A stretch of 64,000 nucleotides of DNA from Gemmatimonadota bacterium (GCA_039930765.1 JBDTTF010000185.1:17441-81440); one strand, 5' to 3'. Counted from the stretch's first letter, positions 845-32,800 are shown. Program-made: numbers and translations. Notes: generated by a model not told the origin, from the letters alone.

Positions 845-1194
845 CCCAGCGTGATGATCCCGCTGGTGGCGCCCTTTTCGATCCCCTGGCCGATCATCTC
901 GTTGACCTTGGTCATCATCTTGTCGAAGTTGGCCCGGGCCACCACATAGCCCTGGCCGATCGGGCTCAGCTCAAGCTCGTGCACCGCTTTTTCATACGCC
1001 TCGGTGGTGGCCGCATCGGGCATCTGCCCCGTGGCAATTACCTGGTCGACCTGCTTCGCCAGGGTCTGAATGGTCTGCAGCTTGGTCTGCGTATCCGTAT
1101 CGTCGCGCAGCACCGCCTCAGCCCGCCGCAGCGCCTTCACCTCGGGAGCCTGGCCGATCAACCGGCCCAGTTCCTCAGCCTTGTCCCAGATCAT
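841..1194 (-). CDS. YlbF/YmcA family regulator
   Basis: Starts MIWDKAEELGRLIGQ.PE; small helical protein; 4-nt overlaps with both neighbours. Confidence 0.75.
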   Translation of the reverse strand: MIWDKAEELGRLIGQAPEVKALRRAEAVLRDDTDTQTKLQTIQTLAKQVDQVIATGQMPDAATTEAYEKAVHELELSPIGQGYVVARANFDKMMTKVNEMIGQGIEKGATSGIITLG

Positions 1195-2042
1195 GCCGTC
1201 TCGCTCCTCTGCGCGAGCAGATACCGCGCGCGCCCAAATAGGTCATCCTGCACCGAAACAGACATCCAGCCGTACTCCCGCGCCAGCTCAGCGCTGGCCG
1301 CCGCGCGGCGGCAATCGAGCTCCATGGCCAGCCAGCCGCGCGGCGTGAGGTTCATCTGTCCGTCACGCAACAGTTGGCGGGTGTCAGCGAGTCCATCCTC
1401 ACCACTGGCCAGCGCGCCGCGCGGCTCATGCTCACGGACGCCGCGCTCAAGCCCCTGATATTCCGCCTCCGTCAGGTAGGGAGGATTGCTGACCAGTGCG
1501 TCGAACCGCTGGCCACGGAGCGGCGCCAGCCAATCGCCGGCGACCAGCTCAACCGGTAACCTGGTCAGCTTCCGATTGTGCCGGGCCAGCGCCAGCGCCT
1601 CGACCGATCGGTCGACCCCGATGACCTGATCGAAGTTTCCCTCGTCGGCCAGGCTGAGCGCGATACAGCCGCTGCCGGTGCCAAGGTCTGCCACGGTGCC
1701 GTGACTGACCCGGCCCAGCAGCAGCTCGACCAGCCCCTCGGTCTCGGGCCGCGGAATCAGTCCCCGTGAGTCGGACCGGAGCAGCAGGCGGCGGAACCCG
1801 GCCAGCTCCGTGACATGCGCCAGCGGCGCGCCGGCCAGACGGCGCTCCAGCAGCGACTCCATCGCGGCCTGCAGCTCGACATCCACCGACGACTCGGTCG
1901 GTTGCCACGCGGCCGCATCGGAATGACTGGCCGTTGCCCACAGCAGACGCGCCTCTCGGGCTGCCTCCTCGACCCCGGCCGACCTCAACCGACCGGCTGC
2001 GTCACGCAGCAACTGCCCGAGACGCACCGGCGCCTCAACCAT
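1191..2042 (-). CDS. prmC: Release factor glutamine methyltransferase
   Basis: LIPRPETE, DLGTGSG and SNPPY motifs; directly downstream of prfA. Confidence 0.95.
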   Translation of the reverse strand: MVEAPVRLGQLLRDAAGRLRSAGVEEAAREARLLWATASHSDAAAWQPTESSVDVELQAAMESLLERRLAGAPLAHVTELAGFRRLLLRSDSRGLIPRPETEGLVELLLGRVSHGTVADLGTGSGCIALSLADEGNFDQVIGVDRSVEALALARHNRKLTRLPVELVAGDWLAPLRGQRFDALVSNPPYLTEAEYQGLERGVREHEPRGALASGEDGLADTRQLLRDGQMNLTPRGWLAMELDCRRAAASAELAREYGWMSVSVQDDLFGRARYLLAQRSETA

Positions 2043-3093
2043 TCACCTGCTCCTCGCGGCTGGCCAGCTGCAGTGCAGCCACCAGCTCATCGATCCGGCC
2101 ATCCATCACTTCGACCAGGTTATGCACCGACAGATTGATCCGGTGATCGGTGATCCGGCTCTGGGGAAAGTTATAGGTCCGGATCTTGGCCGACCGGTCG
2201 CCGGTGCCCACCATGGCCTTGCGGTCGCGGGAACGGACAGCTTCCTGCTCCGAGATCATCCGGTCGAGCAGCCGGGCCCGCAGCACTTCCATGGCCTTGA
2301 GCTTGTTCTGCAGCTGCGACTTCTGATCCTGCTGGGAGACGACCACTCCGGTCGGCAGGTGGGTGATCCGCACGGCGCTGTCGGTGGTGTTCACGCTCTG
2401 GCCACCGGGGCCCGACGAGCGGAAGACATCGATCTTGAGATCGTTGGGATGGATGGTGACGTCGATCTCCTGGGCTTCCGGCAGCACGGCCACGGTGGCG
2501 GCGGAGGTGTGAATCCGGCCGGCATTCTCCGTTTCTGGCACCCGCTGTACCCGGTGCACGCCGGATTCCCGGCGCAGCAGCCCGAAAGCATGGGGCCCGC
2601 GCACCGCGAAGATGGCCTCTCGCACCCCGCCGGCATTGCCGTCACTCAGCGTCATCGACTCGACCTTGAATCCATGGCGCTCGGCAAACCGGGTGTACAT
2701 CCGCACCAGCTCACCGGCAAACAGGCTGGCTTCGTCGCCACCGGTACCGGAGCGCACTTCCAGGATGGCATCACGGTCGTCGTGGGGATCGCGCGGGACC
2801 AGCAGTTCGGTCAGCTCGGATTCGAGGGATTCAACCTCGGGCTGCAGCGTCGCGATCTCCCCCTTGGCCATCGAGGAGAGCTCAGGATCATCCTCGAGCG
2901 CCAGTTCCCGGGCGCCCTGCAGTTGCTGCTGGATGGTGCGGAGGCGCTCGGCCGACCGGACAATCGGCATCAGCCGGTTGTGTTCGCGACCGAGCGACTG
3001 AAGCTTGGTGGGATCCTTGGCCGTGGCGGGGTCGGCCAGCGCCTGACCGACCTCCTCCGCCCGGGCGAGCGCCTGGCGGAGAAGGGCTTCCAC
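2035..3093 (-). CDS. prfA: Peptide chain release factor 1
   Basis: GGQ motif ([15 protein letters not shown]), PET anticodon-mimic motif, RTYNFPQ; rpmE-prfA-prmC order. Confidence 0.97.
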
Positions 3094-3095
3094 CG

Positions 3096-3323
3096 TCAGC
3101 TCGGGGTGGTTTCCGCCGGCGCCTTATCGCCCTGATACCGGCGACGGAACCGATCGACCCGGCCCGCCGTGTCCATCAGCCGCTGCCGGCCGGTGAAGTG
3201 CGGATGGCACTGGGCACACACGTCCACACGCAGCGCGGTGGACGTCGAACGAGTCTCGATCACGTTCCCACAGGCGCACTGGATACTGATTTTCTGGTAC
3301 TTCGGATGGATATCGGACTTCAC
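3096..3323 (-). CDS. rpmE: 50S ribosomal protein L31, Zn-binding form
   Basis: MKSDIHPKY, CACG and CAQCHP cysteines, GRVDRF; GTG start with GGAG SD. Confidence 0.96.
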   Translation of the reverse strand: MKSDIHPKYQKISIQCACGNVIETRSTSTALRVDVCAQCHPHFTGRQRLMDTAGRVDRFRRRYQGDKAPAETTPS

Positions 3324-3459: not shown

Positions 3460-3488
3460 TTGACTCCGCCTGAGGCTGCAAGTATCGT
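3460..3488 (+). promoter_or_regulatory. Sigma70-type promoter of the crp-like gene
   Basis: TTGACT-N17-TATCGT. Confidence 0.55.
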
Positions 3489-3525
3489 CCATGCCGATAC
3501 TTCCACCTTCACGGCCGAGGCCTCT

Positions 3526-4203
3526 CTGCCCCTCTCCTCCCTGGCCGTCCTCCGCCGGGTCCCGTTTTTCGCGGGTTTGCCCGATGAAGAGCTGGCTGCC
3601 ATCGCCGAACTGGTCCGTGAACGCGAATATCCCAAGGGAAGCGTCATCCTGTTTGCCGCCGACCAGGGGGACAGCCTGTACCTGGTCGCCGCCGGCGAGG
3701 TGAAGGTGGTCCTGATTGGTGAGGACGGCCGCGAGGTCGTGCTGTCAGTCATGGGCGAAGGCAACTTCTTCGGCGAGATGTCGCTGCTCGACGATGAGCC
3801 GCGCTCGGCCCACGTGATTGCGCTGCAGGACACCCGGCTGCTGCTGCTGCGGCGGGAAGATTTCCGCAGCCGGCTGCGGGCCTCTCCGGACCTGGCGATC
3901 GCGCTGCTGCGCGAGCTGTCACGCCGCCTCCGGCGAGCCGATGATCGGATCGGAAGTCTGGTCCTGCTCGACGTCGGCGGTCGGGTCGCCGACCAGCTGC
4001 TCCAGGCGGCGGATGAGGGCGATGGTGTCGTGATTGCCCGGCGCCTGACCCACCACCTGATCGGGCAGATGATCGGTGCCAGCCGGGAGACGGTGTCCCG
4101 GACCATGCGCGATTTTGTGGAGCGGGGCCTGATCAAGGTGAGCCGGCGCGAGATCACCCTCCTCGACCGGAAGGCACTGGAAACCACCGCCCAGCGCACG
4201 TGA
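3526..4203 (+). CDS. Crp/Fnr family transcriptional regulator (cNMP-binding domain + HTH); start uncertain (TTG 3460 or CTG 3526)
   Basis: Phosphate-binding cassette FFGEMSLLDDEPRSA; CRP-type recognition helix GASRETVSR. Confidence 0.93.
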   Translation: MPLSSLAVLRRVPFFAGLPDEELAAIAELVREREYPKGSVILFAADQGDSLYLVAAGEVKVVLIGEDGREVVLSVMGEGNFFGEMSLLDDEPRSAHVIALQDTRLLLLRREDFRSRLRASPDLAIALLRELSRRLRRADDRIGSLVLLDVGGRVADQLLQAADEGDGVVIARRLTHHLIGQMIGASRETVSRTMRDFVERGLIKVSRREITLLDRKALETTAQRT

Positions 4204-4214
4204 TGACAATCACC
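4199..4214. promoter_or_regulatory. Putative CRP-binding site
   Basis: CGTGA-TGACAA-TCACC matches the GTGA-N6-TCAC core; about 80 nt upstream of the next start codon. Confidence 0.55.
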
Positions 4215-4291
4215 CCCACCAGGTGACTGCTGGTGCGGCATTTTCGGCAGCGTCCAGCAATATTGCTCAACTGTTAGGCCACAAGGAATTC

Positions 4292-5158
4292 GTGAGCTAT
4301 TCCATCACTTTCTGGGGCACTCGGGGATCGATCCCGACGCCAGGCCCCAATACGGCGCGATACGGCGGGAATACGCCGTGCGTGGCCGTCGCCGGCCGAA
4401 TCGATCAGCTGGTGATTCTGGACGCCGGCAGCGGCATTCGGGCGCTGGGCCAGCAGCTCTCGCGAGAGGTGGCGACGGGAGCAAGTCTCGACATCCTGTT
4501 GTCGCACACCCATTGGGATCACATCCAGGGGCTGCCGTTTTTCCAGCCATTGTATGCCAAGGGAAACTCGGTCCGGATTTACGGGGCGCCGCAGGCGGGG
4601 GTGCCGCTCGAGCGTATCCTGGACCGGCAAATGGACCCGATGGTGTTCCCGGTGCCACTCAAGGCGCTGTCGGCCGACCTCAAGATCAATGAGGTCGGCA
4701 CCGGAGAATTCGAGATCGACGGCTTCCGGGTGGAGGCCTACAGACTGCGGCATCCGGGCACCACTCTGGGATACAAACTGACCCCGGTGAGCGGTGGCGC
4801 CTCGGTGGCGTATCTCACCGACAATGAGCTGGGCACCGGCGGGAACTACGATGTACCGACCGACTGGCGTGAAGGATTGGTCCAGTTTCTGGACGGTGTC
4901 CATATGCTGATCCATGACGCGATGTATCCCGATGATTTACTGGACCGTCGAGCGGGCTGGGGACATTCCAGCCCCGGACAGGCCATACGGTTGGCGATCG
5001 ACGCAGGGGTGGCTCACCTCTTGCTGTTTCATCATGAGCCGGAACATGGGGACGTTGAGCTCGATCGAGTGCTCGCCGATGCCCGTGCCCTGGCCCGACG
5101 CACTGCCCCCAAGCTCGTCGTGGATGCTGCCCGAGAAGGGTTGACGCTCAATCTTTGA
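4292..5158 (+). CDS. MBL-fold metallo-hydrolase, putative phosphodiesterase
   Basis: WGTRGSIP, YGGNT.CV, SHTHWDH, TDNE, HDAMY, GHS and FHHEP motifs; GTG 4292 with AAGGA SD. Confidence 0.88.
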   Translation: MSYSITFWGTRGSIPTPGPNTARYGGNTPCVAVAGRIDQLVILDAGSGIRALGQQLSREVATGASLDILLSHTHWDHIQGLPFFQPLYAKGNSVRIYGAPQAGVPLERILDRQMDPMVFPVPLKALSADLKINEVGTGEFEIDGFRVEAYRLRHPGTTLGYKLTPVSGGASVAYLTDNELGTGGNYDVPTDWREGLVQFLDGVHMLIHDAMYPDDLLDRRAGWGHSSPGQAIRLAIDAGVAHLLLFHHEPEHGDVELDRVLADARALARRTAPKLVVDAAREGLTLNL

Positions 5159-5172
5159 GGAGGATGCTGATT

Positions 5173-5865
5173 ATGCGCTGGCGTAACGTGCTGAACCTGA
5201 CGGCAACGGTCGCGCTGCTGACCGGCCCCCTGGCGGCCCAGGATACGAGGCCCGGTATCGCCGTGCTGCCATTCGACAACGGCGGGTCGTTCGGGCAGTC
5301 CAAGGAAGACCTGGCGGCCCTGCAGCAGGGTATTCCCGCCATGTTGATCAGCGAGCTGAGCCACAACGAGGCGGCACGCCTGGTCGATCGCCGGGACGTC
5401 AACCAGCTGCTCAACGAGCAGAACCTGGCCGCCCAGGGGCGGGTCGATGCCGCCACGGCCGCCAAGATCGGCAAGCTGGTCGGCGCCCGCTACATGATCA
5501 TGGGCGGTTTCGTCGATCTCAACGGCGATTTCCGGATCGATGCCCGGATCGTCGATGTCGAAACCAGCGAGATCATCAAGTCGGTCTCAGCCAAGAACAA
5601 GCGCGACAAACTGTTCGACCTGATCCAGTCGATCGCGACCCAGGTCATGACTGAGACCAAGCTGCCTCCGCTCTCGAGCCAGCAGGCCGCGGTCATGAAG
5701 CGGACCGTCCCGACCGATGCGCTGACGTTCTACAGCCGGGCGCTGCTGTACCAGGACCAGGGCGACAACAAGAAGGCGGAGGTCTACTTCCGCAAGGCGC
5801 TGGACGCGTTCCCCAACTTCGCGGAAGCCAACGAAGGACTGAAGAAGGTCACCGCCCCGAGCTGA
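5173..5865 (+). CDS. Secreted CsgG/HfaB/TolB_N-like domain protein with C-terminal TPR
   Basis: Signal peptide ending LAA-Q; IAVLPFDN, LVDR, A.KIGKLVGARYMI.G, ARIVDVETSEI; TPR-like AEVYFRKALDAFPNFAEA. Confidence 0.78.
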   Translation: MRWRNVLNLTATVALLTGPLAAQDTRPGIAVLPFDNGGSFGQSKEDLAALQQGIPAMLISELSHNEAARLVDRRDVNQLLNEQNLAAQGRVDAATAAKIGKLVGARYMIMGGFVDLNGDFRIDARIVDVETSEIIKSVSAKNKRDKLFDLIQSIATQVMTETKLPPLSSQQAAVMKRTVPTDALTFYSRALLYQDQGDNKKAEVYFRKALDAFPNFAEANEGLKKVTAPS

Positions 5866-5866
5866 C

Positions 5867-6652
5867 ATGCGGCGGATCATCGCCTCCTTTGGGAGGCGGC
5901 TGGCGCGCTGGTTCGCCCGGGTGGGCGCACTGGCGCGCTTCTGTTTCGAAGCGGTCGCGGCGTTCCGGACCCTGCCCGGCGCCGGACGCAGGGTTTCGGG
6001 GCGAGTGCTGGCCAACCAGCTCCGTTTCACCGCGCTGGAAGGCACCGGGCTCATCGTCCTGCTCAGCGGTATCCTCAGCTTCCTGGTGATTTCGAGCGCG
6101 GTCCGCCAGCTCGGTTCGGTCGGCGCGACCGACCTGATCGGCCAGTTGATGGTGGTGGTGATCGTCCGTGAACTGGGTCCGCTGCTCACGGCGCTGGCGG
6201 TAGCTGGCCGGAGCGGCACCGCCATTGCCGCCGAGTTGGCCACCAACAGCGTGATGGGCGAGGTCCGGGCGCTCGAAGCCATGGGAATCGAGCCGCTGCA
6301 CTACCTGGTACTGCCACGACTCACGGGCTGCATCGGGTCAGTGATGATGCTGACGGTGGTATTCGATGGTGTCGCGATCCTGGCGGGGCAGCTGGCCGCC
6401 GGTTCCAACGGCATGAGTGCTCCCCAGTACTACAGCGGCGTGCTCGCGACCCTGACCACCGGCGACATCGTGCTCTCCCTGGCCAAGGGGCTCCTCTTCG
6501 GCGCGTTGATCGGGTTGCTGCCCAGTTTTCAGGGACTCAGCGTCAAGCAGGATCCGACCGAGATTCCCCGGGCGGTCATCCGGGCCACCGTCGGCTCCAT
6601 TGCCATGATCTTCGTGACGGCCGCGGTTTTCGTGCTGATCACCGGCGCATGA
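5867..6652 (+). CDS. MlaE-family ABC permease
   Basis: VRELGPLLTAL.VAGRSGTAIAAEL and ALEAMGIEP..YLVLPR motifs. Confidence 0.92.
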   Translation: MRRIIASFGRRLARWFARVGALARFCFEAVAAFRTLPGAGRRVSGRVLANQLRFTALEGTGLIVLLSGILSFLVISSAVRQLGSVGATDLIGQLMVVVIVRELGPLLTALAVAGRSGTAIAAELATNSVMGEVRALEAMGIEPLHYLVLPRLTGCIGSVMMLTVVFDGVAILAGQLAAGSNGMSAPQYYSGVLATLTTGDIVLSLAKGLLFGALIGLLPSFQGLSVKQDPTEIPRAVIRATVGSIAMIFVTAAVFVLITGA

Positions 6653-7365
6653 GTCATCCACTCGAATTCGAAGGAGTGGCACTGGGGCGGCTGCGCCGGC
6701 GGACCCTGGCCCCCTTCGAGAGTGGCGAGCAGAGCGGCGACCCCGGGTTCTGGCTCAACGTGCCGGAGGGTCAGGTGGTGGTGGCCCTCGGCGATGAGAG
6801 CAGCGGCGTCGGGACGCTCGGCTCGGTCATCCTGGGTTTCTCGCTGGTGCCGATCGGGTCCTGCCGGGTCTTCGGGGTGGACTTGTCGACTCTGGGGCGG
6901 CGCGAGTTGCTGAGCTACCGGCGGCGCATCGGATACCTTCCGATTGGAGACGGCCTGCTGCACAATCTCTCGCTGCGCGACAACGTCCGTCTGCCGCTGC
7001 GCTACGGCAGCAACCTGCATCTCTCCGAGATCGAGGAGCGGACCGATCGCATCCTTGACCTGCTGAGGCTGACCCGGTTCAGCGGGCTCAGGCCGGCTGA
7101 CGCCAACGAGGAAGAGCGCCGCCGGGCCGCGCTGGGCCGAGCGCTGGCATTTGATCCGAAGCTGCTGGTCCTGGAGGAGCCGTTCTCGGGAATGACCGAC
7201 CGGTCTTCGGCCGAGCTGCTGTACGCCGCGCGCGGCGACGAGGGTCCCCAGCGCGGCCACCGGACCGTTTTTATCACGGGCCAGAGCCTGCCGGGGCGGC
7301 TGGTGTCCGACATCGACCGGGAGATCATGGTCGTCCGCGGCCAGGCGATCGAAGCCACCACATGA
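6649..7365 (+). CDS. MlaF-like ABC ATPase homolog with degenerate catalytic motifs
   Basis: Scaffold retained (RRRIGY, NLSLRDNV.LPL, R.ALGRALAFDPKLL.L.EP.SG). Walker A reads GDESSGVGT, signature ANEEE, Walker B LLVLEE, H-loop ITGQ. Confidence 0.8.
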   Translation: MSHPLEFEGVALGRLRRRTLAPFESGEQSGDPGFWLNVPEGQVVVALGDESSGVGTLGSVILGFSLVPIGSCRVFGVDLSTLGRRELLSYRRRIGYLPIGDGLLHNLSLRDNVRLPLRYGSNLHLSEIEERTDRILDLLRLTRFSGLRPADANEEERRRAALGRALAFDPKLLVLEEPFSGMTDRSSAELLYAARGDEGPQRGHRTVFITGQSLPGRLVSDIDREIMVVRGQAIEATT

Positions 7366-8282
7366 ATATCAGCAACCGATCCGCCGACCTCCTGCTCGGC
7401 CTCCTTACGGTGGTCGTGGTCGGTGTGCTCCTGACGGCCCTGATCTTCACCGAGGGCTGGAATGAGCGGCGGTTCAACGTGCTGCTGGTTGCCTCCTCAG
7501 CCGAGGTGCTGGAGCCGGGGGCCAAGGTACTGCTTGAAGGGCTCGAAATTGGCCGGATTACCCGGGTGATTCCGCGCGCCGACTCGGCCCACCAGACCAT
7601 GGAGTTCATCGCCACGCTTCGGCTTCGGTCCCGGTTCCCCGATGGCACCGAACTGCGACTGCCATTGGGCACCAGGGCCGAAATCACCGAGCACACCATC
7701 GGCGCCGGGGATGTTACGCTCCGCCTGCCCGCCCAGTGGGCCGGCACGGTGCACGAGGGTGATACCCTGCGGGCGGTCCACAAGCAGCCGGCGATGGATG
7801 CCATGGCGGCAACGGCGGACACCCTGGCCGCCCAACTGCGGATGGTCCTGGGCGACTCCCGGGTGCTGATGGCCAAACTCAACCAGACTGTGGATCACGC
7901 CGACCGGCTGCTGGTCACCACCGGCCCTGTGATCGGCAGCTCGCTGGCCGCACTGGATACGGTGCTGAAGCAGACCAACCGATCGCTGGCCGCCGCCGCC
8001 CAGATCCTGACTGACGAGGGGGCGCGGCTGGGTCCGATGCACGACTCGCTGGCAATGGCGTTGAGCCAGGCCCACGCCACCATGGTCAGCCTGGAGCATC
8101 TCTCCTCGCTCGGCACGACCGTGGCCAACGAGAACCGGGTCGATGTGCACACCACCCTGGTGCAGATCCGGCAGATCAGCGTGAAACTCGAGTACTATCT
8201 CGACCAGATGGGACGCAAGCCGATGCGGTTCTTCACCGGCATCCGGCCGTATCCAGCGGATACCGCGAGGCCCTCCCCGTGA
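7362..8282 (+). CDS. MlaD/MCE domain protein with long helical region
   Basis: N-terminal TM helix, L.PGAKV.LEGLEIGRI, helical C-terminal region ending KPMRFFTG; follows mlaE and mlaF homologs. Confidence 0.82.
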   Translation: MNISNRSADLLLGLLTVVVVGVLLTALIFTEGWNERRFNVLLVASSAEVLEPGAKVLLEGLEIGRITRVIPRADSAHQTMEFIATLRLRSRFPDGTELRLPLGTRAEITEHTIGAGDVTLRLPAQWAGTVHEGDTLRAVHKQPAMDAMAATADTLAAQLRMVLGDSRVLMAKLNQTVDHADRLLVTTGPVIGSSLAALDTVLKQTNRSLAAAAQILTDEGARLGPMHDSLAMALSQAHATMVSLEHLSSLGTTVANENRVDVHTTLVQIRQISVKLEYYLDQMGRKPMRFFTGIRPYPADTARPSP

Positions 8283-10222
8283 AATTTCTCCTGCTGTACT
8301 CGCCCGGCTGGCGCCCCGCTCCGGTAGCGGAGGCGCTGGCGCAGGATCAGGTCGAGTGCCGGCCGCTGGCCCCATCGGATCCGGCCGTGCTCGATGAGCG
8401 GCCGACGGTGTACCTGCTTGATCCGGCCGACCGCGATGAAGCCACTACGCCGAGGCTGGCCGCACTGGTCGAAGCTGGAGTGGCCATCGTGGCGCTGGGC
8501 GCCCTCGATGAGGAGGACCTGCCGGAAACGATGGCGCCCGAACAGCTGGCGGCCTTTGTCCGGGCGCCGGTACCGCCCCGAACCCTGCTGCTGGCGTTGC
8601 GCAGCGCCTTCAAGATTGCGGTTTCCAGAAAAGAGACCGCTCGGGCCCGGGTTGAGGCGGCCGCCCGGTTGAGCGAGCTGACGGAGCTCACCGATATCGG
8701 GATGCGGCTGACCACGGAAAAACATTACGATACCCTGCTCGACCTGATCCTGAGCCAGGCCCGGCGCATCACCCAGGCCGATGCCGGCAGTCTCTACATC
8801 GTGGAGACCTCCGAGACCGGGATCCGGCGGTTGCGCTTCAAGCTGAGCCAGAATCACAGCCGGCCCGACATCCCGTTCGTCGAAACCACCATGACCCTCG
8901 ATCACACCTCGCTGGCGGGCTACGCCGCCACCGAGGGCGAAGCGCTGGTCATCGACGACGTCTACATGCTGCCCAGCGACGTGGCCTACGCCTTCAATCG
9001 TTCATTCGACGAGCGGTACGGCTACCGCACCAAGTCGATGCTGGTCATCCCGATGCAGAACCATCAGTGCGATGTGATCGGGGTGCTGCAGCTGATCAAT
9101 CGCAAGCGGGACGGCGAGGCGGTACTGACCGACACCAATGCCGCCAACCGCCAGGTGGTGGCGTTCAGTCCTCATACCGTCAAGCTGGTCAAGTCGCTGG
9201 CGGGGCAGGCGGCAGTCTCGATTGAGAACAGCCAGCTGTACGAGTCGATCGAGCGGCTGTTCGAGGGGTTCGTCCGCGCGGCGGTCACGGCCATCGAGCA
9301 GCGTGACCCGACCACCTCAGGCCATTCCGAACGGGTGGCGTCGATGTCGGTCGGACTGGCCCAGACGGTGGACCGGGCCGGCGATGGCCAGTACTCCTCC
9401 GTTCACTTCTCACCGGAGCAGGTCAGGGAGCTGCGCTACGCCAGCCTGCTGCATGATTTCGGCAAGGTCGGTGTACGGGAACAGGTACTGGTCAAGGCCA
9501 ACAAGCTGTATCCCGCCGACCTGACGCTGATTCAGCAGCGACACGACTTCATCCTGCGGTCGGTGCAGTGGCAGTACCAAAAATCCCGGGCCGATTTCCT
9601 GGCCGAACATGGACCTGGTGCGGCCTACCTCACTCGCCTGGCCGACCTCGATGCCGAGCTGGCCCGTGAAAAGGGCCGGCTCGACCGGTTCCTGCAGATC
9701 GTGGTCGATTCCAACCGGCCATCGGTCCTGGCCGAGGGCAATTTCACCGCGCTTCAGGAATTTGCCGACAGCCAGTACAACCTGATCGATGGCGCCACCG
9801 CGCCGTTCCTGAGCGGGGACGAGGTCCGTTTCCTCAGTATCCGCAAGGGCAGCCTCGATGAGCGCGAACGACTCGAGATTGAGAGCCACGTCACCCATAC
9901 CTTCGGTTTCCTGCGCAAGATTCCCTGGACCCGCGAGCTGAGCCTGGTGCCCACGATTGCCCACGGCCATCACGAGAAACTCAACGGCTCAGGCTATCCC
10001 CGGCACGTTGGCGGCGCCGAGATTCCGATCCAGACCCGAATCATGACCATCGCCGATATTTTCGACGCGCTGACGGCCCAGGACCGGCCCTACAAGCGGG
10101 CCCTGCCGGCGCCCAAGGCGCTGGATATCATGACGGAAGAGGTCCAGGGCGGGATGCTGGATCAGGAGTTGTTTCGATTGTTCGTGGAAGGCAAGGCCTT
10201 CGAGCAGGCGCGGGCGATGTAG
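8279..10222 (+). CDS. GAF + HD-GYP domain cyclic-dinucleotide phosphodiesterase, with an N-terminal degenerate receiver-like region
   Basis: GAF (ADAGSLY, GYRTKSMLVIPM, GVLQLIN); HDFGKVG, HHEKLNGSGYP and IADIFDALTA.DRPYK. Confidence 0.92.
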   Translation: MKFLLLYSPGWRPAPVAEALAQDQVECRPLAPSDPAVLDERPTVYLLDPADRDEATTPRLAALVEAGVAIVALGALDEEDLPETMAPEQLAAFVRAPVPPRTLLLALRSAFKIAVSRKETARARVEAAARLSELTELTDIGMRLTTEKHYDTLLDLILSQARRITQADAGSLYIVETSETGIRRLRFKLSQNHSRPDIPFVETTMTLDHTSLAGYAATEGEALVIDDVYMLPSDVAYAFNRSFDERYGYRTKSMLVIPMQNHQCDVIGVLQLINRKRDGEAVLTDTNAANRQVVAFSPHTVKLVKSLAGQAAVSIENSQLYESIERLFEGFVRAAVTAIEQRDPTTSGHSERVASMSVGLAQTVDRAGDGQYSSVHFSPEQVRELRYASLLHDFGKVGVREQVLVKANKLYPADLTLIQQRHDFILRSVQWQYQKSRADFLAEHGPGAAYLTRLADLDAELAREKGRLDRFLQIVVDSNRPSVLAEGNFTALQEFADSQYNLIDGATAPFLSGDEVRFLSIRKGSLDERERLEIESHVTHTFGFLRKIPWTRELSLVPTIAHGHHEKLNGSGYPRHVGGAEIPIQTRIMTIADIFDALTAQDRPYKRALPAPKALDIMTEEVQGGMLDQELFRLFVEGKAFEQARAM

Positions 10223-10300: not shown

Positions 10301-11832
10301 AATCCGCGCAACGGCCGGAAGATGGCCAGCCCGAGCATCCCCGCCGACAGAACCAGCGAAAGCACACCCACCCAGTCGCCCCAGCGGACATACAGCGGAA
10401 TCAGGTCACTGGTCTCGACCGGTGCGATCACGGTTGCCCGGGACTCAAGCGCGGTCTGATGCGTCACGATGCCGAGCGGACTCACCACCTCGGTGATGCC
10501 GCTGTTGGCGGCCTGGGCAATGCCGACGCGGGTCTCGATGGCGCGCATGACCAGGTGGGCGGCGTGTTGCCCCGGCGCCGTGGTGGTGCCGTACCAGGCG
10601 TCGTTGGTGATGTTGACCAGCACCTCGGCTCCCTCACGGCGGTACCTCCGGGCCAGGTCCTCGAAGGTCGACTCGAAGCAGATGATCGTCCCGACTCGGC
10701 CAATCGGCGTCTGGTACAGTGGCGTGGCCTGGCCCCGGCCAAAGGCGCCGAAGAATTTCAGCCCTTCGAGCCAGCGCGGCGGAATGAAGGGCACCCGCTC
10801 GACCACCGGCACCAGGTAGTGCTTGGCGTAGACCGGATAGTCCTGCCATCGCCCGGCCGAATCGAAATAAAAGGCGGCATTGTAGAAGGTGCCGCGGTCC
10901 TCCGCCACTTTTCCCGGGATATAGTTGAGGCCGCCGACCAGGATGGGTGTGGCCGTTTCGCGCGCCAACCGGGAGATGGCCTCCGCGTACGCCGGGCGGG
11001 CCTGGAAGGTGGCCGGCACTGCGGCCTCTGGCCACAGGACCAGGTCCGGATGGCTTGACCTGATGGCGCTGTCGGTCTGGGCCAGCATTCCAGCCACAAT
11101 GCTGCTGCTTTCGCTCTCGACCCATTTATCGCGAAAGCCGATGTTGGGCTGGATCATCGCGACGGTGCCGGCGGTGCGAATCGGCAGTGTCCGCATCCGC
11201 CAGGTGCCGAATCCAGCGGCCACGGCAATCGTGACCGCCGTAGCCACGGCCGCCGTGCGCCAACGCCTGGGATCGAGTACGGCGAACGCGATGAGACCAT
11301 TGAGCGCCGCCAGCCAGAAGGTGACGCCGCGGGCTCCGCCGATCTCGGCCCACTGGACCAGCACCGGAAAGCCGGTCAGCGTGTGACCGAGGCCGAGCCA
11401 GGGAAACTGAATATCGGGAAAGTGTCCGATGATCCATTCCACCGTGGTCCACGCCGCCGCGAAGCCGAGCCAGCGTGGCACCCGGGGAACCCGGTGCCAT
11501 ACGAGCGTCACTGCGGCGGCCATGGCACCGGTCCAGACTGACCAGAGGAGGACGGTGGCCAGATACCCGGCCACCGATAGCGGGGTGAAGTGCCAGAGCG
11601 CCACCACCATCCAGTAGAGAAAAACGCCCTGCGCCACCACTGTGGACTTGAACGCGATGCGCGCGGCGCTCCAGACCGGATCCGCTCCGTCCGCGGCCTC
11701 GGCTATGAGGACAATCAGCGGCACGACGCAGATGAAACCGGGAATCAGCAGATTGAACGGGGGGTATGCCAGAACGGTGAGCAGTGCGTGGGTCCCGATC
11801 AGCGCCCACTGGCGGCGGCCAGCAGCGGTCAC
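10297..11832 (-). CDS. lnt: Apolipoprotein N-acyltransferase
   Basis: Multiple TM helices, FPWL.LG, QPNI, WPEAA, Y.K..LVP..E, ICFE, TNDAWYG. Confidence 0.94.
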   Translation of the reverse strand: MTAAGRRQWALIGTHALLTVLAYPPFNLLIPGFICVVPLIVLIAEAADGADPVWSAARIAFKSTVVAQGVFLYWMVVALWHFTPLSVAGYLATVLLWSVWTGAMAAAVTLVWHRVPRVPRWLGFAAAWTTVEWIIGHFPDIQFPWLGLGHTLTGFPVLVQWAEIGGARGVTFWLAALNGLIAFAVLDPRRWRTAAVATAVTIAVAAGFGTWRMRTLPIRTAGTVAMIQPNIGFRDKWVESESSSIVAGMLAQTDSAIRSSHPDLVLWPEAAVPATFQARPAYAEAISRLARETATPILVGGLNYIPGKVAEDRGTFYNAAFYFDSAGRWQDYPVYAKHYLVPVVERVPFIPPRWLEGLKFFGAFGRGQATPLYQTPIGRVGTIICFESTFEDLARRYRREGAEVLVNITNDAWYGTTTAPGQHAAHLVMRAIETRVGIAQAANSGITEVVSPLGIVTHQTALESRATVIAPVETSDLIPLYVRWGDWVGVLSLVLSAGMLGLAIFRPLRGL

Positions 11833-12839
11833 AGCGCGACGTCTTTCCCGTCAGCGGCCGAGCGGTAGATCGCGTCAAGCACCTTGTGCAGGGTGATCTG
11901 CTCCTGCTGTGCCGCCGGCCGTGCCGTGCCGCTGACCGATGCCAGGAAGTGGGCCCACTGGGCGCGAGTCGCCGCGGTGAAGGGATTCTCCCGTCCGACT
12001 GACCCGGTCGGCGCCACATCGGTCGGGACGCCGTTCAATTCCTTCCAGACGTGCAGCGGGTTGATCCCGGCGGTCCCCTTGCTGCCCCTGAGCCCGACTC
12101 CGAATCGCTCGCCCTCACCAATGTGATGCCAGGTGACGTCCACAAACAGTGAGACGCCGCCTTCGCAGGTCACAAAGGCACTGCCGGACTGCTCGACCCC
12201 TTTGTCCCGGGCCGGCTTGTCCAGTGAGGCGGAGACCCGGACCGGCACCGGACCGTTGGCCAGCCAGAGCTCCAGGTCGAGGATGGCCTGCCCCAGGTCG
12301 AGCATGGCGCCGCCGCCCGCCTCATCCTTCCGCAGCCGCCAGCCCAGCTGGGCCCGTCCGGGCCGGAAGACGTGCCAGCTGCCGCGGACACTTTCGATCT
12401 CGCCCAGTTCCCCGCTCTGCACAAAGCTCCGCACCAGCTGCACATCACTGCGGTAGCGGTGGGTGGCCGAGACCATCAGGATCCGGTCCCGCTTCTCGGC
12501 CAGCTTCAGAATCTTCTGGGCGCTGGCGGCGGTCATGGTCAACGGCCGCTCGATCAGGATGTGGAGCCCGGCGCTGAGTGCCGCCACCGCGTGGGATTCG
12601 TGGAGGTGGTTGGGGGTGCAGATCACGACGGCATCGAGATCGCCGGGCTTGAGCATGTCCTCGACGTCGTCAAAGGCGCGGGCAATCTGGAACCGGTCGG
12701 CCAGCGCCTTGGCCTTGGGAAGATCGTTGTCACAGATGGCGGTGACCTCGACGCCCTTGAGCTTGCGGAGCACCGGCAGATGGGCCACCTGGGTGATGGC
12801 GCCGGCGCCGAGAATTCCGATTCGCAGTCCGTCTGTCAT
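11829..12839 (-). CDS. Gfo/Idh/MocA family oxidoreductase
   Basis: RIGILGAGAI, ICTPNHLH, IERPL, GGGAMLDLG; start moved to ATG 12839. Confidence 0.9.
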   Translation of the reverse strand: MTDGLRIGILGAGAITQVAHLPVLRKLKGVEVTAICDNDLPKAKALADRFQIARAFDDVEDMLKPGDLDAVVICTPNHLHESHAVAALSAGLHILIERPLTMTAASAQKILKLAEKRDRILMVSATHRYRSDVQLVRSFVQSGELGEIESVRGSWHVFRPGRAQLGWRLRKDEAGGGAMLDLGQAILDLELWLANGPVPVRVSASLDKPARDKGVEQSGSAFVTCEGGVSLFVDVTWHHIGEGERFGVGLRGSKGTAGINPLHVWKELNGVPTDVAPTGSVGRENPFTAATRAQWAHFLASVSGTARPAAQQEQITLHKVLDAIYRSAADGKDVAL

Positions 12840-12852
12840 GTCGCCCTCGCTG

Positions 12853-14121
12853 CTAGTAGATCCGCTGAAGATCGGTGCCCGGAAAATAGGCCTGGAGGAT
12901 CCGGCTATACGTTTGTCCGGCCCGGGCCCTGCCGACCGCTCCCCACTGACAGAAGCCGACCCCGTGCCCCGCCCCGCCGCCATCGGCGACCAGCCCCACC
13001 AGCCGTGCCCCCTCATGCTGCTCGGTCAGGCTGAACCGGGTGCTCCTGAGCAGTGCATCCGGTGAAGGCCTCAGGACCTGTCGGATATCCGGTCCCGAAA
13101 CCGTGATGACCCGGTTGCCGATATCGATCTCGACCCGATCGGCCCGGTCAGAGGCCGTGCGGCTGACCACCCGCACCCCGCGCACATCGGTGATTTCGGC
13201 GCTGCGGGCCAGCCCTTCATCGGGCAGCGTCTGCTTCAGCGTAGTGAGCAGCGCGGCGCGGGTCCACTCCTGTCGCCAGGAGAATCGTGGCGAAATTCGA
13301 CAGTAGGCTTGGCCCTGCTCATCGAGGTCGGAGACCGAACGGAGGTAGGGACGATTGGCGTTGACGTACACCTCGGTGCCGTTGGCGGTGCGCCCGCCGC
13401 AGGTGGAATGAAAAAAGGCATCAATCAACCCGCCCTGCCAGGTCAGCACCTGGCCGCTGGTTTCACGGACCGCGGCCCAGGCCAGCGGCGTTTCGCTGCC
13501 GATCCCGCCGTAGACCTGGTCCGCCACCGTGGCGTTGAGGTCGAATCCGTCAGCCTTCCGCTTGCCCAGGTTTCTGATGGCAAAAGTGCGGGACACCACG
13601 GCCTGCGCCCGCATGGCTTCAAACTCGGAGCTGTCCCGCCGTCCCATCTCGGCCGACAGGACGCCGGCCAGGTAATTCTCGAGCCCCAGTCGATCGACCA
13701 CGGTGAGTCCGCGCGCGTCACGAATGAATTCGAGCCGGCCGCGATAGGATCGCGGCCCGATCTGGATCGAGCTGGCGGGACTGGTCGGAGCCGCGATGAC
13801 CGTGGACAGCCGGCTCGAACGCCAGCCGTCGGCGCCGATCAGCACCAAGCCTTCACGCTCTGGCGCCACGGTCCACTGGGCGGACTGAGGCAGCCCCGGC
13901 ACCAGCCCTCCATCGGCGCCGATCAGGGTGAGGGGCGCATCGGAGCGGATAGCGACGGTGACTGCCCCGGTCTGCAATCCGACCCGGATTTCCGGCTCGG
14001 TGGCTCCCTGTGGTGCAGAGACCTCGGGAGCGGGCTGATCGGGAACGGGCGGGGTGCAGGTGACGACCGCGAGCGTCAACAGCAGTGTGAAGGTTCTGGT
14101 CCACCGGAAGGAACTGGCCAC
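12853..14121 (-). CDS. SpoIID/LytB domain lipoprotein (lytic transglycosylase-like)
   Basis: YRG.L, LENYLAGVLSAEM, EA.RAQAV.SRTFA, DQVYGG, FHSTCGG, GHGVG.CQWGA; lipobox-like VVTC; GTG start 14121. Confidence 0.9.
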   Translation of the reverse strand: MASSFRWTRTFTLLLTLAVVTCTPPVPDQPAPEVSAPQGATEPEIRVGLQTGAVTVAIRSDAPLTLIGADGGLVPGLPQSAQWTVAPEREGLVLIGADGWRSSRLSTVIAAPTSPASSIQIGPRSYRGRLEFIRDARGLTVVDRLGLENYLAGVLSAEMGRRDSSEFEAMRAQAVVSRTFAIRNLGKRKADGFDLNATVADQVYGGIGSETPLAWAAVRETSGQVLTWQGGLIDAFFHSTCGGRTANGTEVYVNANRPYLRSVSDLDEQGQAYCRISPRFSWRQEWTRAALLTTLKQTLPDEGLARSAEITDVRGVRVVSRTASDRADRVEIDIGNRVITVSGPDIRQVLRPSPDALLRSTRFSLTEQHEGARLVGLVADGGGAGHGVGFCQWGAVGRARAGQTYSRILQAYFPGTDLQRIY

Positions 14122-14122
14122 G

Positions 14123-14626
14123 CTAGCTGCGGTAATTCCCGAACTTGAGTTCGATCTCGAAGTCCTGGCTGCGGAGAAAGGCAATGACCGCCTGCAGTTC
14201 ATCACGGTCGGGCGCCGAGACCCGTACTTCTTCACCCTGGATGGAGGACTGGACCTTCTTGAAACCCTGGTCCTTGATGGCCTTCACGATCTTCTTGGCG
14301 ATCTCGCTGGCAATGGCCTGGGTAAGGCCGATGGTTCGGCGCACCGAGCCGGCGGAGCCGACGATCGGATCGCCGATGACGAGGTTCTTGACCGGCACGC
14401 CGCGCTTGGTCAGCTTGCCGCGCACCACGTCGAGCAAAGCTTCCATCCGGAAGTCGTCATCGGCCAGCAGCCGGATCTCGGCCTTCTCGCGGTCGAACTC
14501 GATCTCGCACTTGGTGCCCTTGAAATCGTAGCGCTGGGCGATCTCCTTGTGGGCCTGGTTGACGGCGTTGTCAACCTCCTGGAGGTCGGCGCCGGTCGAG
14601 ATATCGAAGGAAGAGTTGCTGGCCAT
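14123..14626 (-). CDS. yajQ: YajQ family nucleotide (c-di-GMP)-binding protein
   Basis: SFDI, QEVDNAVNQA.KEI.QRYDFKG, IQGEEVRV, RDELQAVI, F.NYR. Confidence 0.95.
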   Translation of the reverse strand: MASNSSFDISTGADLQEVDNAVNQAHKEIAQRYDFKGTKCEIEFDREKAEIRLLADDDFRMEALLDVVRGKLTKRGVPVKNLVIGDPIVGSAGSVRRTIGLTQAIASEIAKKIVKAIKDQGFKKVQSSIQGEEVRVSAPDRDELQAVIAFLRSQDFEIELKFGNYRS

Positions 14627-29883: not shown

Positions 29884-32800
29884 CTACCAGATGATCCGGA
29901 TCGTGGTTCCCTCCCCCACGACGCTGGTCACCTCCACTCGCGCCTGCCAGCTCTGCACCAGCCGCTGCACGATTGCCAGGCCCAACCCGGCTCCACTGGT
30001 CGTGGTCGAAAACCGGGGTTCGAAGATCCTTGGCAGCAGCGCCTCCGCGATGCCGCGGCCATCGTCGCGCACGGTCACCGTCCGGTCTCCGACTTCGATC
30101 CGGACGGCCTGGGCCCCCGCCTCCCGGGCATTCTCAATCAGATTGACGATGACCTCCTTCACCTCATCCCGCCGGGCCGCCACCCAGCTGGCCCGGCCGC
30201 CCACGACCACGACCTCGGCACCGCCTCCCATCGTATACAGGGAGACGGTTTCCCGAATGGCCTGGCCCAGTTCCAGGCGCTCGAGTGGCAGCACGTCCGG
30301 GGCCGGGGCGGCGAAGCGGCTGAAGGCCCGGGCGATGGTATCCAGCCGGTCGATCTCACCCAGGATCCGGTCCGACGTTTCGGCCAGGGTGGCCGCAAAG
30401 CCCGGGTCGTCCTGACGGTAGATCCGGCGGAGATGCTGTACCCCGAGACGGATCGGGGTCAGCGGATTTTTCACTTCGTGGGCCACCTGTCGTGCTACTT
30501 CACCCCAGGCCAGCACTCGCTCGGCCCGTGCGACGTCAGTCACGTCGTCGAACGCCAGCACCACGCCGCCGGTCGAGGGACCCAGCGAGGAGAGCTGGCA
30601 GGTGGCACGCCGCCCGCCGATTTCAAGTTCGACCCGGCCGCTCTCAGTGCGCTCGCTCTCGCTGAATTTCCGGGCCGCGTCGATCAGCGGCTGCCACCCC
30701 GACCCTTCCGCGACCCGGAACCGCTGACCGACCATGGGTGACTCGCCCAGCAATTCGGCCGCCCGAGGGTTGGCCATCAAGACCTTACCGTCGGCATCGA
30801 GCGCCACGACCCCGGTGGCCACGTGGGCCAGCACCGCCGCCGTGCGGCGTCGAGCCTCATCGAGCTGCAGTTCGCTGGTTCGGACGTCTGCGCTCATCCG
30901 CTCGATGGCGCCGAACACCGGCTCGAACTCGAGTGGCGGCAGCGAGGTGGACAATGGCAGCCGCTCGCCGTGGCCGATCGCGGAGGCAATGCGGCCCAGC
31001 TCTTCGACCGGACGCGCCAGCGCTCGCGAGGCAACCTGAGCCCCCACGATCGCGGCGCCGAGGCCGAGCAGGGTACCGAGCAGCAGCACGAGGGCAATGT
31101 CGCGCTGGCTCTCGCGCAGGTGCACTTCGGCCGGCCGCTTGAGCGTGGCCAGCAGTCCGATGCCGCCTGGCGGCCCGGCCAGCACCACTCGATAGCCGGC
31201 CACCAGGGTTGGAGCATTGGCCGGCGTTCCCCGGGTGACTTCGATTCCATCATGCAGTGCGAGGGCGGTGAACGGATCGGGATCAACCAGCGGACGGATG
31301 AAGCCGAGATCGGCCAGCACCGGATCACTGACCGCCAGCATCCGCCCGCCGCTGTAGAGCGCGAGGGTGGCATCCAGCCGTTCACTCAGGTCCTTGAGAC
31401 TGCCTTCGATCTCGCTGGCCGGCGCCTCCATCAGGCGGGCCGCCGGCCCCATCGCGTCCCGCAGCGACTGCAGTACCAGCAGGTCTCCCGCTCGCCGGTA
31501 CTCCGCCCCCAAACGGGACATGCCCCAGATCGAGAAGCCGACGGCGGGAATGAGAAAGAACAGCGCCAGCGCGAACGCGGTACGGAACTGGAACGAACGA
31601 CCCAGCCGGCGCCAGTTGGCCAGGGACGGCGCGCCGACCGAGCCCCATTCAGCCATCAGCCAGACCAGGCCAAGTGCCAGCACATCGAGCAACACCACCA
31701 GCGCCCCACGGACCGACAGCGCGAACGGATCACGCATGTCGACCACGGCGTAAACGTGCCGGGCTCCGCCGGGAAGGGAGATTCGCCGCTCGCTTCGGAC
31801 CGACCAGCCGTCTCGCCGCCAGCGTAACTGCAGACTGTCCGCCGGCACCCCGGGGGTGGGTGGAGACAGCGAGAGTTCGTACAGCGCGGCCGACTCAGTT
31901 GGGGTGCGCAGCAGCGCCCCGAGCCGGGTCGGCCCGATCAGCCGGGTTCGGGGTCCGATGGCGGCGGTGAGCACCGTGGCACTATCCAGCCGCTGAAGCA
32001 GGACGTAGTGCAGGCCGGGCACTCTCAGCAGTCGCAGCACCTTGGGCGCACTGCCTGGATTGAAATCGCGAACCAGCCCACTCACGATCGGCGCTGGCAG
32101 GTCCAGCGCGTCGAGGCCGAGCTCGGCCTTCAAATCTCCGGCTGGAGACCACAGCGCCAGGCGAACCGGATACGCGGCGTCACCGAGGCCCGATCGCCGG
32201 TACAGCGCATATAGCGAAGTGGGGTCCGTCGGACGCGCGATCACCGCTGCGTCGGCAAAATTCATCAGCAGGGGCGCCGCCAGGGCATCGGCGTTGCCGC
32301 CGAGCTGGGATACGTCGCGTTCGGCCACCTGCAGCCGCGCCCGGAGCTCCGCACCCCACGTGACCAGCGCCGCCGCACTGCCGGCCACCAGCGCTATTCC
32401 CGCGATGGCCACTCGGCGACGGGTCGGGAGTGTGACGAGGATCAGCGCCGGGGTCCACAGGAACGGGTACCAGATCGGCCAGCCCGGCCTCGGGGACCAC
32501 GTCACCGTGCCGACGGCGGCGGCCCCGATGGCGATCACGACGCCAAGGCCAGTGATCCAGCGCGGCACCTCTCGGCTGTTGGCGCCGCGCAGCAATGCCG
32601 CCGCCAGTACGATCATCGCTGACGAGCCCATCACCAGCGCGAGTTGCCAGATCAGCCAGAGCCGAGTCGTTACCCCAGTCGAAGGGGGAGTGATTCCCCG
32701 CCCCAGTTCGCTGATCAGGTAGGGAGCGCCGATCAGCAGGACGGCCGCAAGGGCGATGGTGAACAGATTGCGCGGCAGCCGGCGTCGCCAGAGTCCGATA

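Follow-up and report, generated by a model that had tools for sequence, protein, structure and literature searches.

A conserved pseudo-ATPase in an MlaE-MCE trio inserted into a cyclic-nucleotide gene cassette of Gemmatimonadota

We analysed a stretch of 64,000 nucleotides, here called the window, from a Gemmatimonadota bacterium (GCA_039930765.1, JBDTTF010000185.1:17441-81440). The host is a Gemmatimonadales bacterium from soil, and the window carries a compact one-strand cluster of seven genes at 3526-10222. These encode, in order, a CRP-type regulator, an MBL-fold enzyme, a secreted TolB_N/CsgG-like protein with a TPR, an MlaE permease, a nucleotide-binding domain (NBD) of the ABC type, an MCE protein and a GAF-HD-GYP protein. 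Alignments indicate that the NBD is a pseudo-ATPase, in which all six catalytic motifs are lost and which is kept by purifying selection. Furthermore, the locus is composite: a wider and older four-gene cassette beside rpmE carries an accessory mlaE-NBD-mce insert, here called the trio. Calling and translation of open reading frames (ORFs) gave seven consecutive ORFs on the + strand (3460-10222), and these, together with domain matches, confirmed the seven co-oriented genes of the original prediction, which had been made from the DNA alone. It had also stated that the last four genes are joined by 4-nt overlaps. This was confirmed as well; the overlaps are ATGA at the mlaE/NBD junction (6649-6652), ATGA at the NBD/mce junction (7362-7365) and GTGA at the mce/HD-GYP junction (8279-8282).

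The NBD is of the MlaF type. It matches the Pfam ABC_tran profile unusually weakly (6.5e-10, 40 bits), and its best PDB match is 7d06_B (6.6e-17), with E. coli MlaF (6xbd_I) at 1.4e-12. We aligned it with both canonical MlaF proteins that the host genome encodes (contigs C130 and C258), and with MlaF structures from the PDB. In Walker A, GxSGTGKS is replaced by GDESSGVG (Lys to Val and Ser to Gly), and the Gln of the Q-loop is Ile in the window and Ala in most relatives. The signature LSGGM reads ANEEE, and the D-E of Walker B is changed to E followed by a variable E/Q/D. The D-loop SGLD has become SGMT, and the TH of the H-loop has become TG (His to Gly). The protein had been called MlaF-like in the original prediction; the label understates the case, since every ATPase motif is missing. 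An MCE/Mla-type ABC transporter has an ATP-hydrolysing NBD, and this NBD is not one. In ABC proteins, the two subunits share each ATP site, one contributing Walker A and its partner the signature. Because the NBD has neither, both ATP sites would be spoiled in any dimer. The host genome retains two canonical MlaEF sets. Rescue by a heterodimer with canonical MlaF was considered and was ruled out on this ABC architecture.

The lost motifs are not a peculiarity of the window. Conservation was scored in 76 NBD sequences (75 loci and the window); in this and the other orthologue alignments, only proteins of 0.8 to 1.3 times the length of the window protein were kept. The position of the Walker A Lys is V, L or I in 75/76 sequences, and that of the H-loop His is G, S or A in 72/76. 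The second G of LSGG is E (E155) in 75/76, G53 is present in 75/76, and both R158 and R159 are found in 76/76. The former ATP site is thereby occupied by a conserved GDExSGV and by A-N-E-E-E followed by RRR. In nine close pairs, dN/dS of the NBD was 0.04-0.20, similar to the 0.00-0.20 of the neighbouring genes; that of the MCE protein was 0.03-0.20 in close pairs. A library of 1.84 billion representatives yielded just 39 proteins at E 1e-30. Full-length members (P0121-P0123) score 274-338 bits, followed by fragments and then by generic ABC ATPases below about 185 bits.

Outside this NBD family, we noted a protein of 278 residues annotated as MlaF (P0148), which lacks Walker A, the LSGGQ signature and the His of the H-loop, and which lies on an NCBI/JGI contig of 8665 bases. 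Its gene neighbourhood was not recovered by a cluster look-up or by a metagenome scan, which returned nine loci, all 21-40% identical. Two further MlaF-like proteins, P0146 and P0151, have an intact Walker A and the altered signatures LSPAE and LSVHQ, respectively. Judging from P0148, lineages other than this one may also have MlaF-like NBDs with degenerate motifs, and P0146 and P0151 may represent intermediate states of NBD degeneration.

The arrangement of the cluster is strongly conserved. A profile of the pseudo-NBD found relatives in 210 species-representative genomes, and the best 80 of these 210, all metagenome-assembled genomes of Gemmatimonadota, were examined as loci. In tblastn searches with the seven window proteins, all seven genes were colinear and co-oriented in 66 of the 80 loci, and the other 14 were cut by contig ends; no examined locus departs from the seven-gene order. 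The original prediction had proposed a neighbourhood survey, in which mla genes usually lying apart from the crp, MBL and HD-GYP genes would speak against it. They do not lie apart, and 66/66 complete loci are colinear. The rpmE gene is found divergently upstream in 61 of the 69 loci that reach that far, and also in genomes without the trio. The lnt gene, which lies downstream of the cluster and convergent to it in the window, is downstream in just 16 loci, at a variable distance. Junctions are conserved to different degrees. The overlap between mce and HD-GYP is -4 in 64/65 loci, that between mlaE and NBD is -4 or -1 in 54/67, and the 4-nt overlap between NBD and mce is found in 33/70. The gap between the TolB_N and mlaE genes is 30 nt or less in 63/64 loci, and the CRP/MBL gap is wider (median 77 nt). 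ORF extraction gave intact frames for the NBD in 75/80 loci and for the MCE protein in 73/80; in L056 and L064 the NBD runs into a contig end.

The distribution of the genes revealed that the cluster consists of two parts. We used an even sample of 301 Gemmatimonadota genomes, which includes the unpublished genomes G181 and G156. The pseudo-NBD was found in 42/301 genomes, with one match per genome and never elsewhere, in a census that scored nine first-look candidates per genome and could miss very divergent NBDs. By family, it occurs in 38 of 124 genomes of f1 and in the window's genome, in 3/3 of f3 and in 0/173 of ten other families; by genus, it occurs in 21/127. The HD-GYP orthologue was found in 118/301 genomes, which include all 42 with the NBD. 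From the 76 genomes with HD-GYP and without an NBD match, 14 loci were fetched, picked by choice across families and therefore not a random sample; tblastn found no NBD in these 14 loci. In 8/14, rpmE is followed by CRP, MBL, TolB_N/TPR and HD-GYP genes, with nothing between the last two. One of these eight (G128) belongs to the window's own genus; its HD-GYP protein is 82% identical to that of the window, and a 120-nt spacer takes the place of the trio. Another of the 14 (L094) has just a 5'-truncated mce between the secreted-protein and HD-GYP genes. This remnant aligns with residues 65-305 of the window MCE protein and has kept the 4-nt overlap with the start of the HD-GYP gene; its sequence identifies it as a deletion scar. 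In the remaining loci, MBL and HD-GYP genes are adjacent (3/14, from distant families), 5 kb apart (1/14), or HD-GYP stands alone (1/14). The original prediction had described an operon built around the MCE module. This did not hold, because the trio is an accessory insert (NBD in 42/301 genomes versus HD-GYP in 118/301) that has been lost at least about six times.

The number of losses comes from a maximum-likelihood tree of 79 HD-GYP proteins, of which 65 come from loci with the trio, 13 from loci without it and one from the locus with the scar. Orthologues had to be 600-700 residues long, which excluded four of 68. Proteins from trio-less loci nest within trio clades: L096 groups with the window and L004 (support 100), L084 with L068 (97) and L086 with L070 (97). 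The fewest changes of trio gain or loss on this tree are eight, and at least six are forced by well-supported branches. On the sequence evidence, the simplest reading is that the trio was gained once or a few times in one order and deleted repeatedly. Repeated deletion is favoured because it is unlikely that one site would have received these three genes several times over. Only one outgroup, the long-branched L091, roots the tree, and the placement of other distant rows is unsure, so we make no claim about the exact point of gain. Two side observations concern the parts of the cassette. In L090, L093 and L097, MBL and HD-GYP genes are adjacent though the CRP, secreted-protein and trio genes are absent or elsewhere; the sequence data suggest that the MBL + HD-GYP pair may be the oldest functional unit. 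In G141 (C1:139167-139577), an NBD match limited to profile positions 28-164 (170 bits) lies next to a full HD-GYP gene, and may be another decay intermediate of the trio.

The other two proteins of the trio are recognisable members of their families. MlaE matches PF02405 at 173.8 bits (4.9e-51), as expected of the permease, and TIGR00056 at 9.2e-38, under its 212-bit cut-off. It is the third and most divergent of the three MlaE proteins of the host genome (174 bits versus 230 and 228), and is 34% identical to the canonical paralogue on C258. The MCE protein matches TIGR00996 (3.3e-11), and its match to Pfam MlaD is borderline (23.2 and 25.5 bits in two scans; cut-off 25.1). Its AlphaFold2 (AF2) model, of low confidence (pLDDT 65), has a helix at 3-30, strands at 37-141 and helices at 144-219 and 224-292, each of about 70 residues; the transmembrane helix followed by a beta domain is that of a membrane-anchored MCE protein, and the long helices make it one of the elongated helical MlaD type. 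NBD and MCE proteins are the fastest-evolving of the seven, sharing a median of 50% and 33% identity, respectively, with the window proteins, compared with 58-65% for the others. The original prediction had drawn attention to the lack of mlaA, mlaB and mlaC. They are absent here: no STAS gene (MlaB) was found in the cluster by Pfam scan, and no match to PF04333 or PF05494 (MlaA/MlaC) was found anywhere in the genome, whose completeness estimated from markers is 100%. The absence is thus not specific to the locus, since MlaA and MlaC are missing from the whole genome. Furthermore, MlaEFD-only cores with an elongated helical MlaD are widespread, and MlaA/B/C do not define the EFD core, according to PMC10665443.

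The HD-GYP protein (647 residues) matches Pfam GAF (2.1e-14) and HD_5 (1.5e-28). It aligns with PmGH (PDB 4mcw, 9.4e-30) in two stretches, query residues 136-419 and 528-636, which are separated by a helical insertion of about 105 residues (419 to 528) inside the HD-GYP domain. In the AF2 model (pLDDT 84), an N-terminal alpha/beta domain (1-95) is followed by a long helix (100-146), GAF, a second long helix and HD-GYP, with a helical hairpin insert at 412-479. Foldseek placed 4mcw first and cNMP-binding GAF domains next; with the whole model it found only GAF/HD-GYP proteins, plus the REC-GAF kinases 6oap and 6oaq at low TM-score. The HD, HHE...GYP and downstream D...RPY motifs are all present in the window protein, and H349, H392, D393, H537, H540, H564, H565, E566, G572, Y573, P574 and D593 are each conserved in 65-66/66 orthologues. 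The N-terminal domain was recognised by Pfam in 0/4 sequences, and Response_reg gave no match at E up to 10 in 4/4. In a receiver (REC) domain, beta1 is followed by an acidic pair, beta3 by the phospho-acceptor Asp and beta5 by a Lys. D48 follows the third strand in at least 90% of the sequences, and the acidic pair and the Lys were not seen in this domain. It thus does not qualify as a REC domain, and the predicted model is receiver-like in topology alone. A complex prediction with the pseudo-NBD and residues 1-146 of the HD-GYP protein gave scores of 0.00 and 0.01, the threshold being 0.32; run without controls, it is evidence neither for nor against contact.

The remaining three proteins belong to the older cassette. 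The regulator matches cNMP_binding (2.6e-26) and HTH_Crp_2 (1.3e-18), and it has the FGE and RSA motifs and the C-terminal HTH of the CRP/FNR family. G105, R115, S116 and A117 are invariant in 65/65 orthologues, and E106 is E in 64/65 and D in one. It scored 116.6 bits against the NCBIfam CRP equivalog, whose cut-off is 266 bits; therefore it is not an orthologue of E. coli CRP. The MBL-fold enzyme matches Lactamase_B_2 (1.2e-18), and its HxHxDH metal-site motif is invariant in 68/68 orthologues. The motifs for ligand binding or catalysis in CRP, MBL and HD-GYP proteins are thus all kept across the aligned orthologues, which supports the original prediction. The substrate of the MBL enzyme is less clearly indicated by its matches. 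Its NCBIfam matches to RNase Z (7.9e-22) and to a cyclic nucleotide-degrading phosphodiesterase (1.7e-9) are both far under the cut-offs, as is a weak PhnP match; it scored 37.5 bits against NF041851 (cut-off 400 bits). The best PDB match is RNase Z (2cbn, 2.6e-10), and PDEase_II matched one of ten sequences weakly (E 0.38). Atlas clusters of the enzyme carry PF23023 on 14-21% of their members, a lead to Apyc1-like cNMP phosphodiesterases. The third protein has a Sec-type signal peptide, which ends in AAQ before DTRPGIAVLPF, and it matches Pfam CsgG (5.6e-18) in the N-terminal half only (profile 6-101 of 210), together with LpoB and one TPR (TPR_1). It has no lipobox, and a Cys within the first 40 residues is found in just 4/67 orthologues. 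Hence the description of a secreted CsgG/TolB_N-TPR protein was right as to secretion and domain type, and falls short in that half of the CsgG profile and the lipobox are missing. We rejected a CsgG curli secretion channel, since the channel-forming part is unmatched and there is no lipoprotein anchor. A defence system was also rejected: PADLOC matched only the cNMP domain of CRP (to Pycsar effector cNMP domains) and none of the other six proteins.

How the trio works with the cassette can be proposed from these data. We favour, tentatively, the reading that the trio serves the cassette as its envelope arm, independently of ATP, in the role of a sensor or of a gated conduit. With the ATP sites abolished, an MlaE2-pseudoNBD2-MCE6 complex would be unable to run the ATP-driven Mla cycle. 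The MCE tube would span the periplasm, possibly reaching the co-encoded secreted protein, and MlaE would hold or pass a lipid-like ligand. On the cytoplasmic side, the pseudo-NBD would be an adaptor, passing signals to the cyclic-nucleotide enzymes or coming under their control. Its main partner among them would be the HD-GYP protein, encoded by a gene that would be translationally coupled to mce. In the cassette itself, CRP would be a regulator responsive to cAMP or cGMP, and the HD-GYP protein would hydrolyse cyclic di-GMP (c-di-GMP) or another cyclic dinucleotide under the control of its GAF and N-terminal domains. The MBL enzyme would act on a cyclic mononucleotide or on the linear molecule that the HD-GYP protein releases. 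By analogy with Tlr0485 and Bd1971, which are described below, we infer that the core is a cassette for cross-talk between cAMP and c-di-GMP. A scan of the host genome gave 13 GGDEF matches and a single class III cyclase, which indicates that both messenger systems exist in it. A narrower version holds that the trio is a transporter turned receptor, free of ATP, in which lipid occupancy of MCE/MlaE, or contact with the secreted protein, is passed through the dead NBD to GAF-HD-GYP. Envelope state would then set local c-di-GMP, and cAMP would be a second input via CRP, GAF and MBL; in the reverse flow, cyclic nucleotides would gate the conduit through the rebuilt nucleotide site. This version is unlikely. 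The original prediction had likewise held that the MCE complex was repurposed as an envelope sensor or scaffold. Repurposing now has a strong argument in the six motifs lost under purifying selection, and the sensor or scaffold role is plausible.

Several points weigh against an envelope arm that belongs to the cassette. The trio is dispensable to the cassette, as it was lost repeatedly and once within a genus. The divergence of the HD-GYP N-terminal domain did not change after loss: it is 0.86 identical between L068 and L084 (with and without the trio) and 0.85 between L068 and L070 (both with the trio). A CRP palindrome (TGTGA-N6-TCACA) was found within two mismatches in 0/60 upstream regions, so there is no indication that CRP controls its own operon; an FNR operator was found within two mismatches in 2/60. 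The Atlas lead to Apyc1 was not reproduced, with 0/10 matches to that family in a Pfam scan. The reach of the NBD census, given above, is a further reservation, and contact or signalling between the trio and the HD-GYP, CRP, MBL and secreted proteins is purely proposed.

It is a substantial, if doubtful, possibility that the trio is co-expressed with the cassette and independent of it: a lipid conduit or holder, passive or energised by something other than ATP, that shares the promoter and has no signalling link. The intact cassettes left after loss and the unchanged rate of the HD-GYP N-terminal domain are as this would predict. MlaE and MCE proteins are ordinary family members, and MlaEFD-only bridges are described in PMC10665443; tight operon overlaps are common regardless of contact between the products. 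Independence accords poorly with the constant position of the trio in all complete loci, with the NBD being a single match per searched genome and never elsewhere, and with the -4 overlap with HD-GYP, which persists even in the deletion scar. In addition, a conserved pseudo-NBD with new invariant acidic motifs would need a role of its own. We give little credence to the reading that cassette enzymes act on the trio as an effector, with the pseudo-NBD binding something other than ATP, for instance a cyclic nucleotide or a bridging metal ion, so that the MlaE-MCE conduit is gated. The former ATP site is indeed rebuilt with conserved residues, not scrambled, and cyclic-nucleotide enzymes flank the trio at every locus; however, most of the new residues are acidic, so that an anionic nucleotide would be a poor direct ligand without a mediating metal, and no known cyclic-nucleotide-binding motif was recognised in the pseudo-NBD. 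Least probable is that the trio is a decaying relic of an Mla-type transporter, under relaxed selection and with no present function. Such decay would explain the loss of all ATPase motifs, the repeated independent deletions, the truncated mce in L094, the partial NBD match in G141 and the fast evolution of NBD and MCE proteins. Against it stand the low dN/dS of both proteins and their intact frames, and also the conservation of the replacement residues themselves (E155, G53, R158, R159) and of the start/stop overlaps.

Known systems resemble the cluster in part. MlaFEDB of E. coli and A. baumannii (PDB 6xbd, 7d06, 6z5u) also has an MlaE permease, an MlaF-type NBD and an anchored MCE protein encoded by adjacent genes. 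Unlike it, the cluster lacks MlaB, MlaC and MlaA, its MCE protein has about 150 extra helical residues, and its trio is embedded in a cyclic-nucleotide cassette. FtsEX and BceAB-BceRS are ABC-type complexes for signalling or mechanotransmission, whose state is read by partner proteins and which keep an active ATPase; in the cluster NBD, by contrast, both ATP sites are abolished. The MlaEFD-only bridge of Veillonella parvula is likewise a minimal EFD core without MlaA/B/C, and its MCE protein continues into a long alpha-helical stretch, for which a span across the periplasm has been proposed (PMC10665443). Unlike the bridge as described there, the cluster MCE protein has no predicted C-terminal beta-barrel, the ATPase is dead and signalling genes surround it. 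PmGH (4mcw) and Tlr0485, both c-di-GMP phosphodiesterases, share the order GAF then HD-GYP and the full set of metal and substrate motifs; the cluster protein differs from both in its N-terminal alpha/beta domain, its coiled coil and its helical insertion of about 105 residues. In Tlr0485, binding of cAMP to GAF activates c-di-GMP hydrolysis, a link from cAMP to c-di-GMP of the kind that the original prediction had proposed (10.1101/2021.11.05.467447). Bd1971 of Bdellovibrio, a single EAL-type protein, is a cAMP-sensing c-di-GMP phosphodiesterase that combines cAMP sensing by a cNMP domain with c-di-GMP degradation in one functional unit (PMC6717892); in the cluster, CRP carries the cNMP domain as a protein of its own, and the phosphodiesterase belongs to the HD-GYP type. 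Each domain family is known, and both MlaEFD-only systems and GAF-HD-GYP enzymes have been described. Full-text searches, whose coverage left out subscription journals, found no paper on MCE/MlaE with HD-GYP, none on MCE proteins or MlaD with c-di-GMP, and nothing relevant on pseudo-ATPase NBDs with MCE. Undescribed in the searched literature are an NBD without ATP sites in an MlaE/MCE system, its fixed insertion in a cyclic-nucleotide cassette, and the series of loci with and without it.

The features of the cluster and its flank are given in Table 1. Three gene starts were revised from the longest ORF. The crp gene probably starts at 3526, as the original prediction had placed it; this fits the orthologues, most of which carry GTG or TTG at the aligned position. 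The longer crp ORF opens at the first base of the promoter-like TTGACT-17-TATCGT. The start of the MBL gene is probably at 4292, because the Atlas record begins at residue 24 and the median length of the orthologues is 292 aa. That of the secreted-protein gene is probably the ATG at 5173, which has GGAGG 9 nt upstream; with this start, the apparent MBL/TolB_N overlap is really a gap of 14 nt. Upstream of crp, the commonest shared 8-mer is GTTTGACA, found in 29 of 60 orthologous regions. We also observed that a -35-like TTGAC(A/T) is conserved in frame with crp (window 3460-3465; e.g., L006, L015, L028 and L029), which leads ORF finders to a spurious N-terminal extension "MT..." in several genomes. 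A search of sequencing runs for the locus returned seven DNA runs from three studies and no RNA run.

Table 1. Coordinates of the gene cluster, its predicted promoter and the divergent upstream genes
Feature	Position	Strand	Remarks
Promoter-like TTGACT-17 nt-TATCGT	3460..3488	+	rpmE/crp divergent intergenic region; consensus scan, 9/12 matches; predicted only
CRP/FNR-family regulator, cNMP-binding + HTH	3526..4203	+	ORF open from TTG 3460
MBL-fold (Lactamase_B_2) phosphodiesterase-like protein, RNase Z / PhnP / cyclic-nucleotide-phosphodiesterase-like	4292..5158	+	ORF open from GTG 4223
Secreted periplasmic protein: Sec signal peptide, TolB_N/CsgG/LpoB-like alpha/beta domain, one TPR	5173..5865	+	ORF open from TTG 5155
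MlaE-family permease	5867..6652	+	Pfam MlaE 4.9e-51
Putative pseudo-ATPase, ABC NBD fold, six catalytic motifs replaced	6649..7365	+	Alignment with canonical MlaF
MCE protein (MlaD family): N-terminal membrane helix, one MCE beta domain, about 150 residues of long helices	7362..8282	+	Pfam MlaD, TIGR00996, AF2
Alpha/beta N-terminal domain, coiled coil, GAF, HD-GYP with helical insertion of about 105 residues	8279..10222	+	Pfam GAF, HD_5
rpmE	3096-3323	-	Housekeeping, divergent from cluster
prfA	2035-3093	-	Housekeeping, divergent from cluster
prmC	1191-2042	-	Housekeeping, divergent from cluster

Elsewhere in the window, an ORF for a GFO/IDH/MocA oxidoreductase (11829-13016) and one for a SpoIID-domain protein (12853-14235), both on the - strand, overlap by about 160 nt, and one of the two starts is probably miscalled. 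A histidine kinase of 1326 residues (29884-33864, - strand) is recognised by Pfam only in its C-terminal PAS/HisKA/HATPase part, and its N-terminal 1000 residues or so have no match at E 1e-5.

MCE systems are regarded as lipid transporters powered by an MlaF-type ATPase. The trio lacks one defining feature of an Mla-type ABC transporter, an active ATPase, yet it may work like an MCE conduit. An NBD of the homodimeric type without an ATP site, under selection in more than 200 species-level genomes, would mean that an MlaE-MCE assembly can work independently of ATP. This bears on the open question of the role of the ATPase and the direction of lipid movement in Mla-type transport. For second messengers, the locus is a conserved cassette that unites a cAMP-type receptor, two putative phosphodiesterases and a periplasmic protein, and it comes in natural variants with and without the envelope module, even inside one genus.

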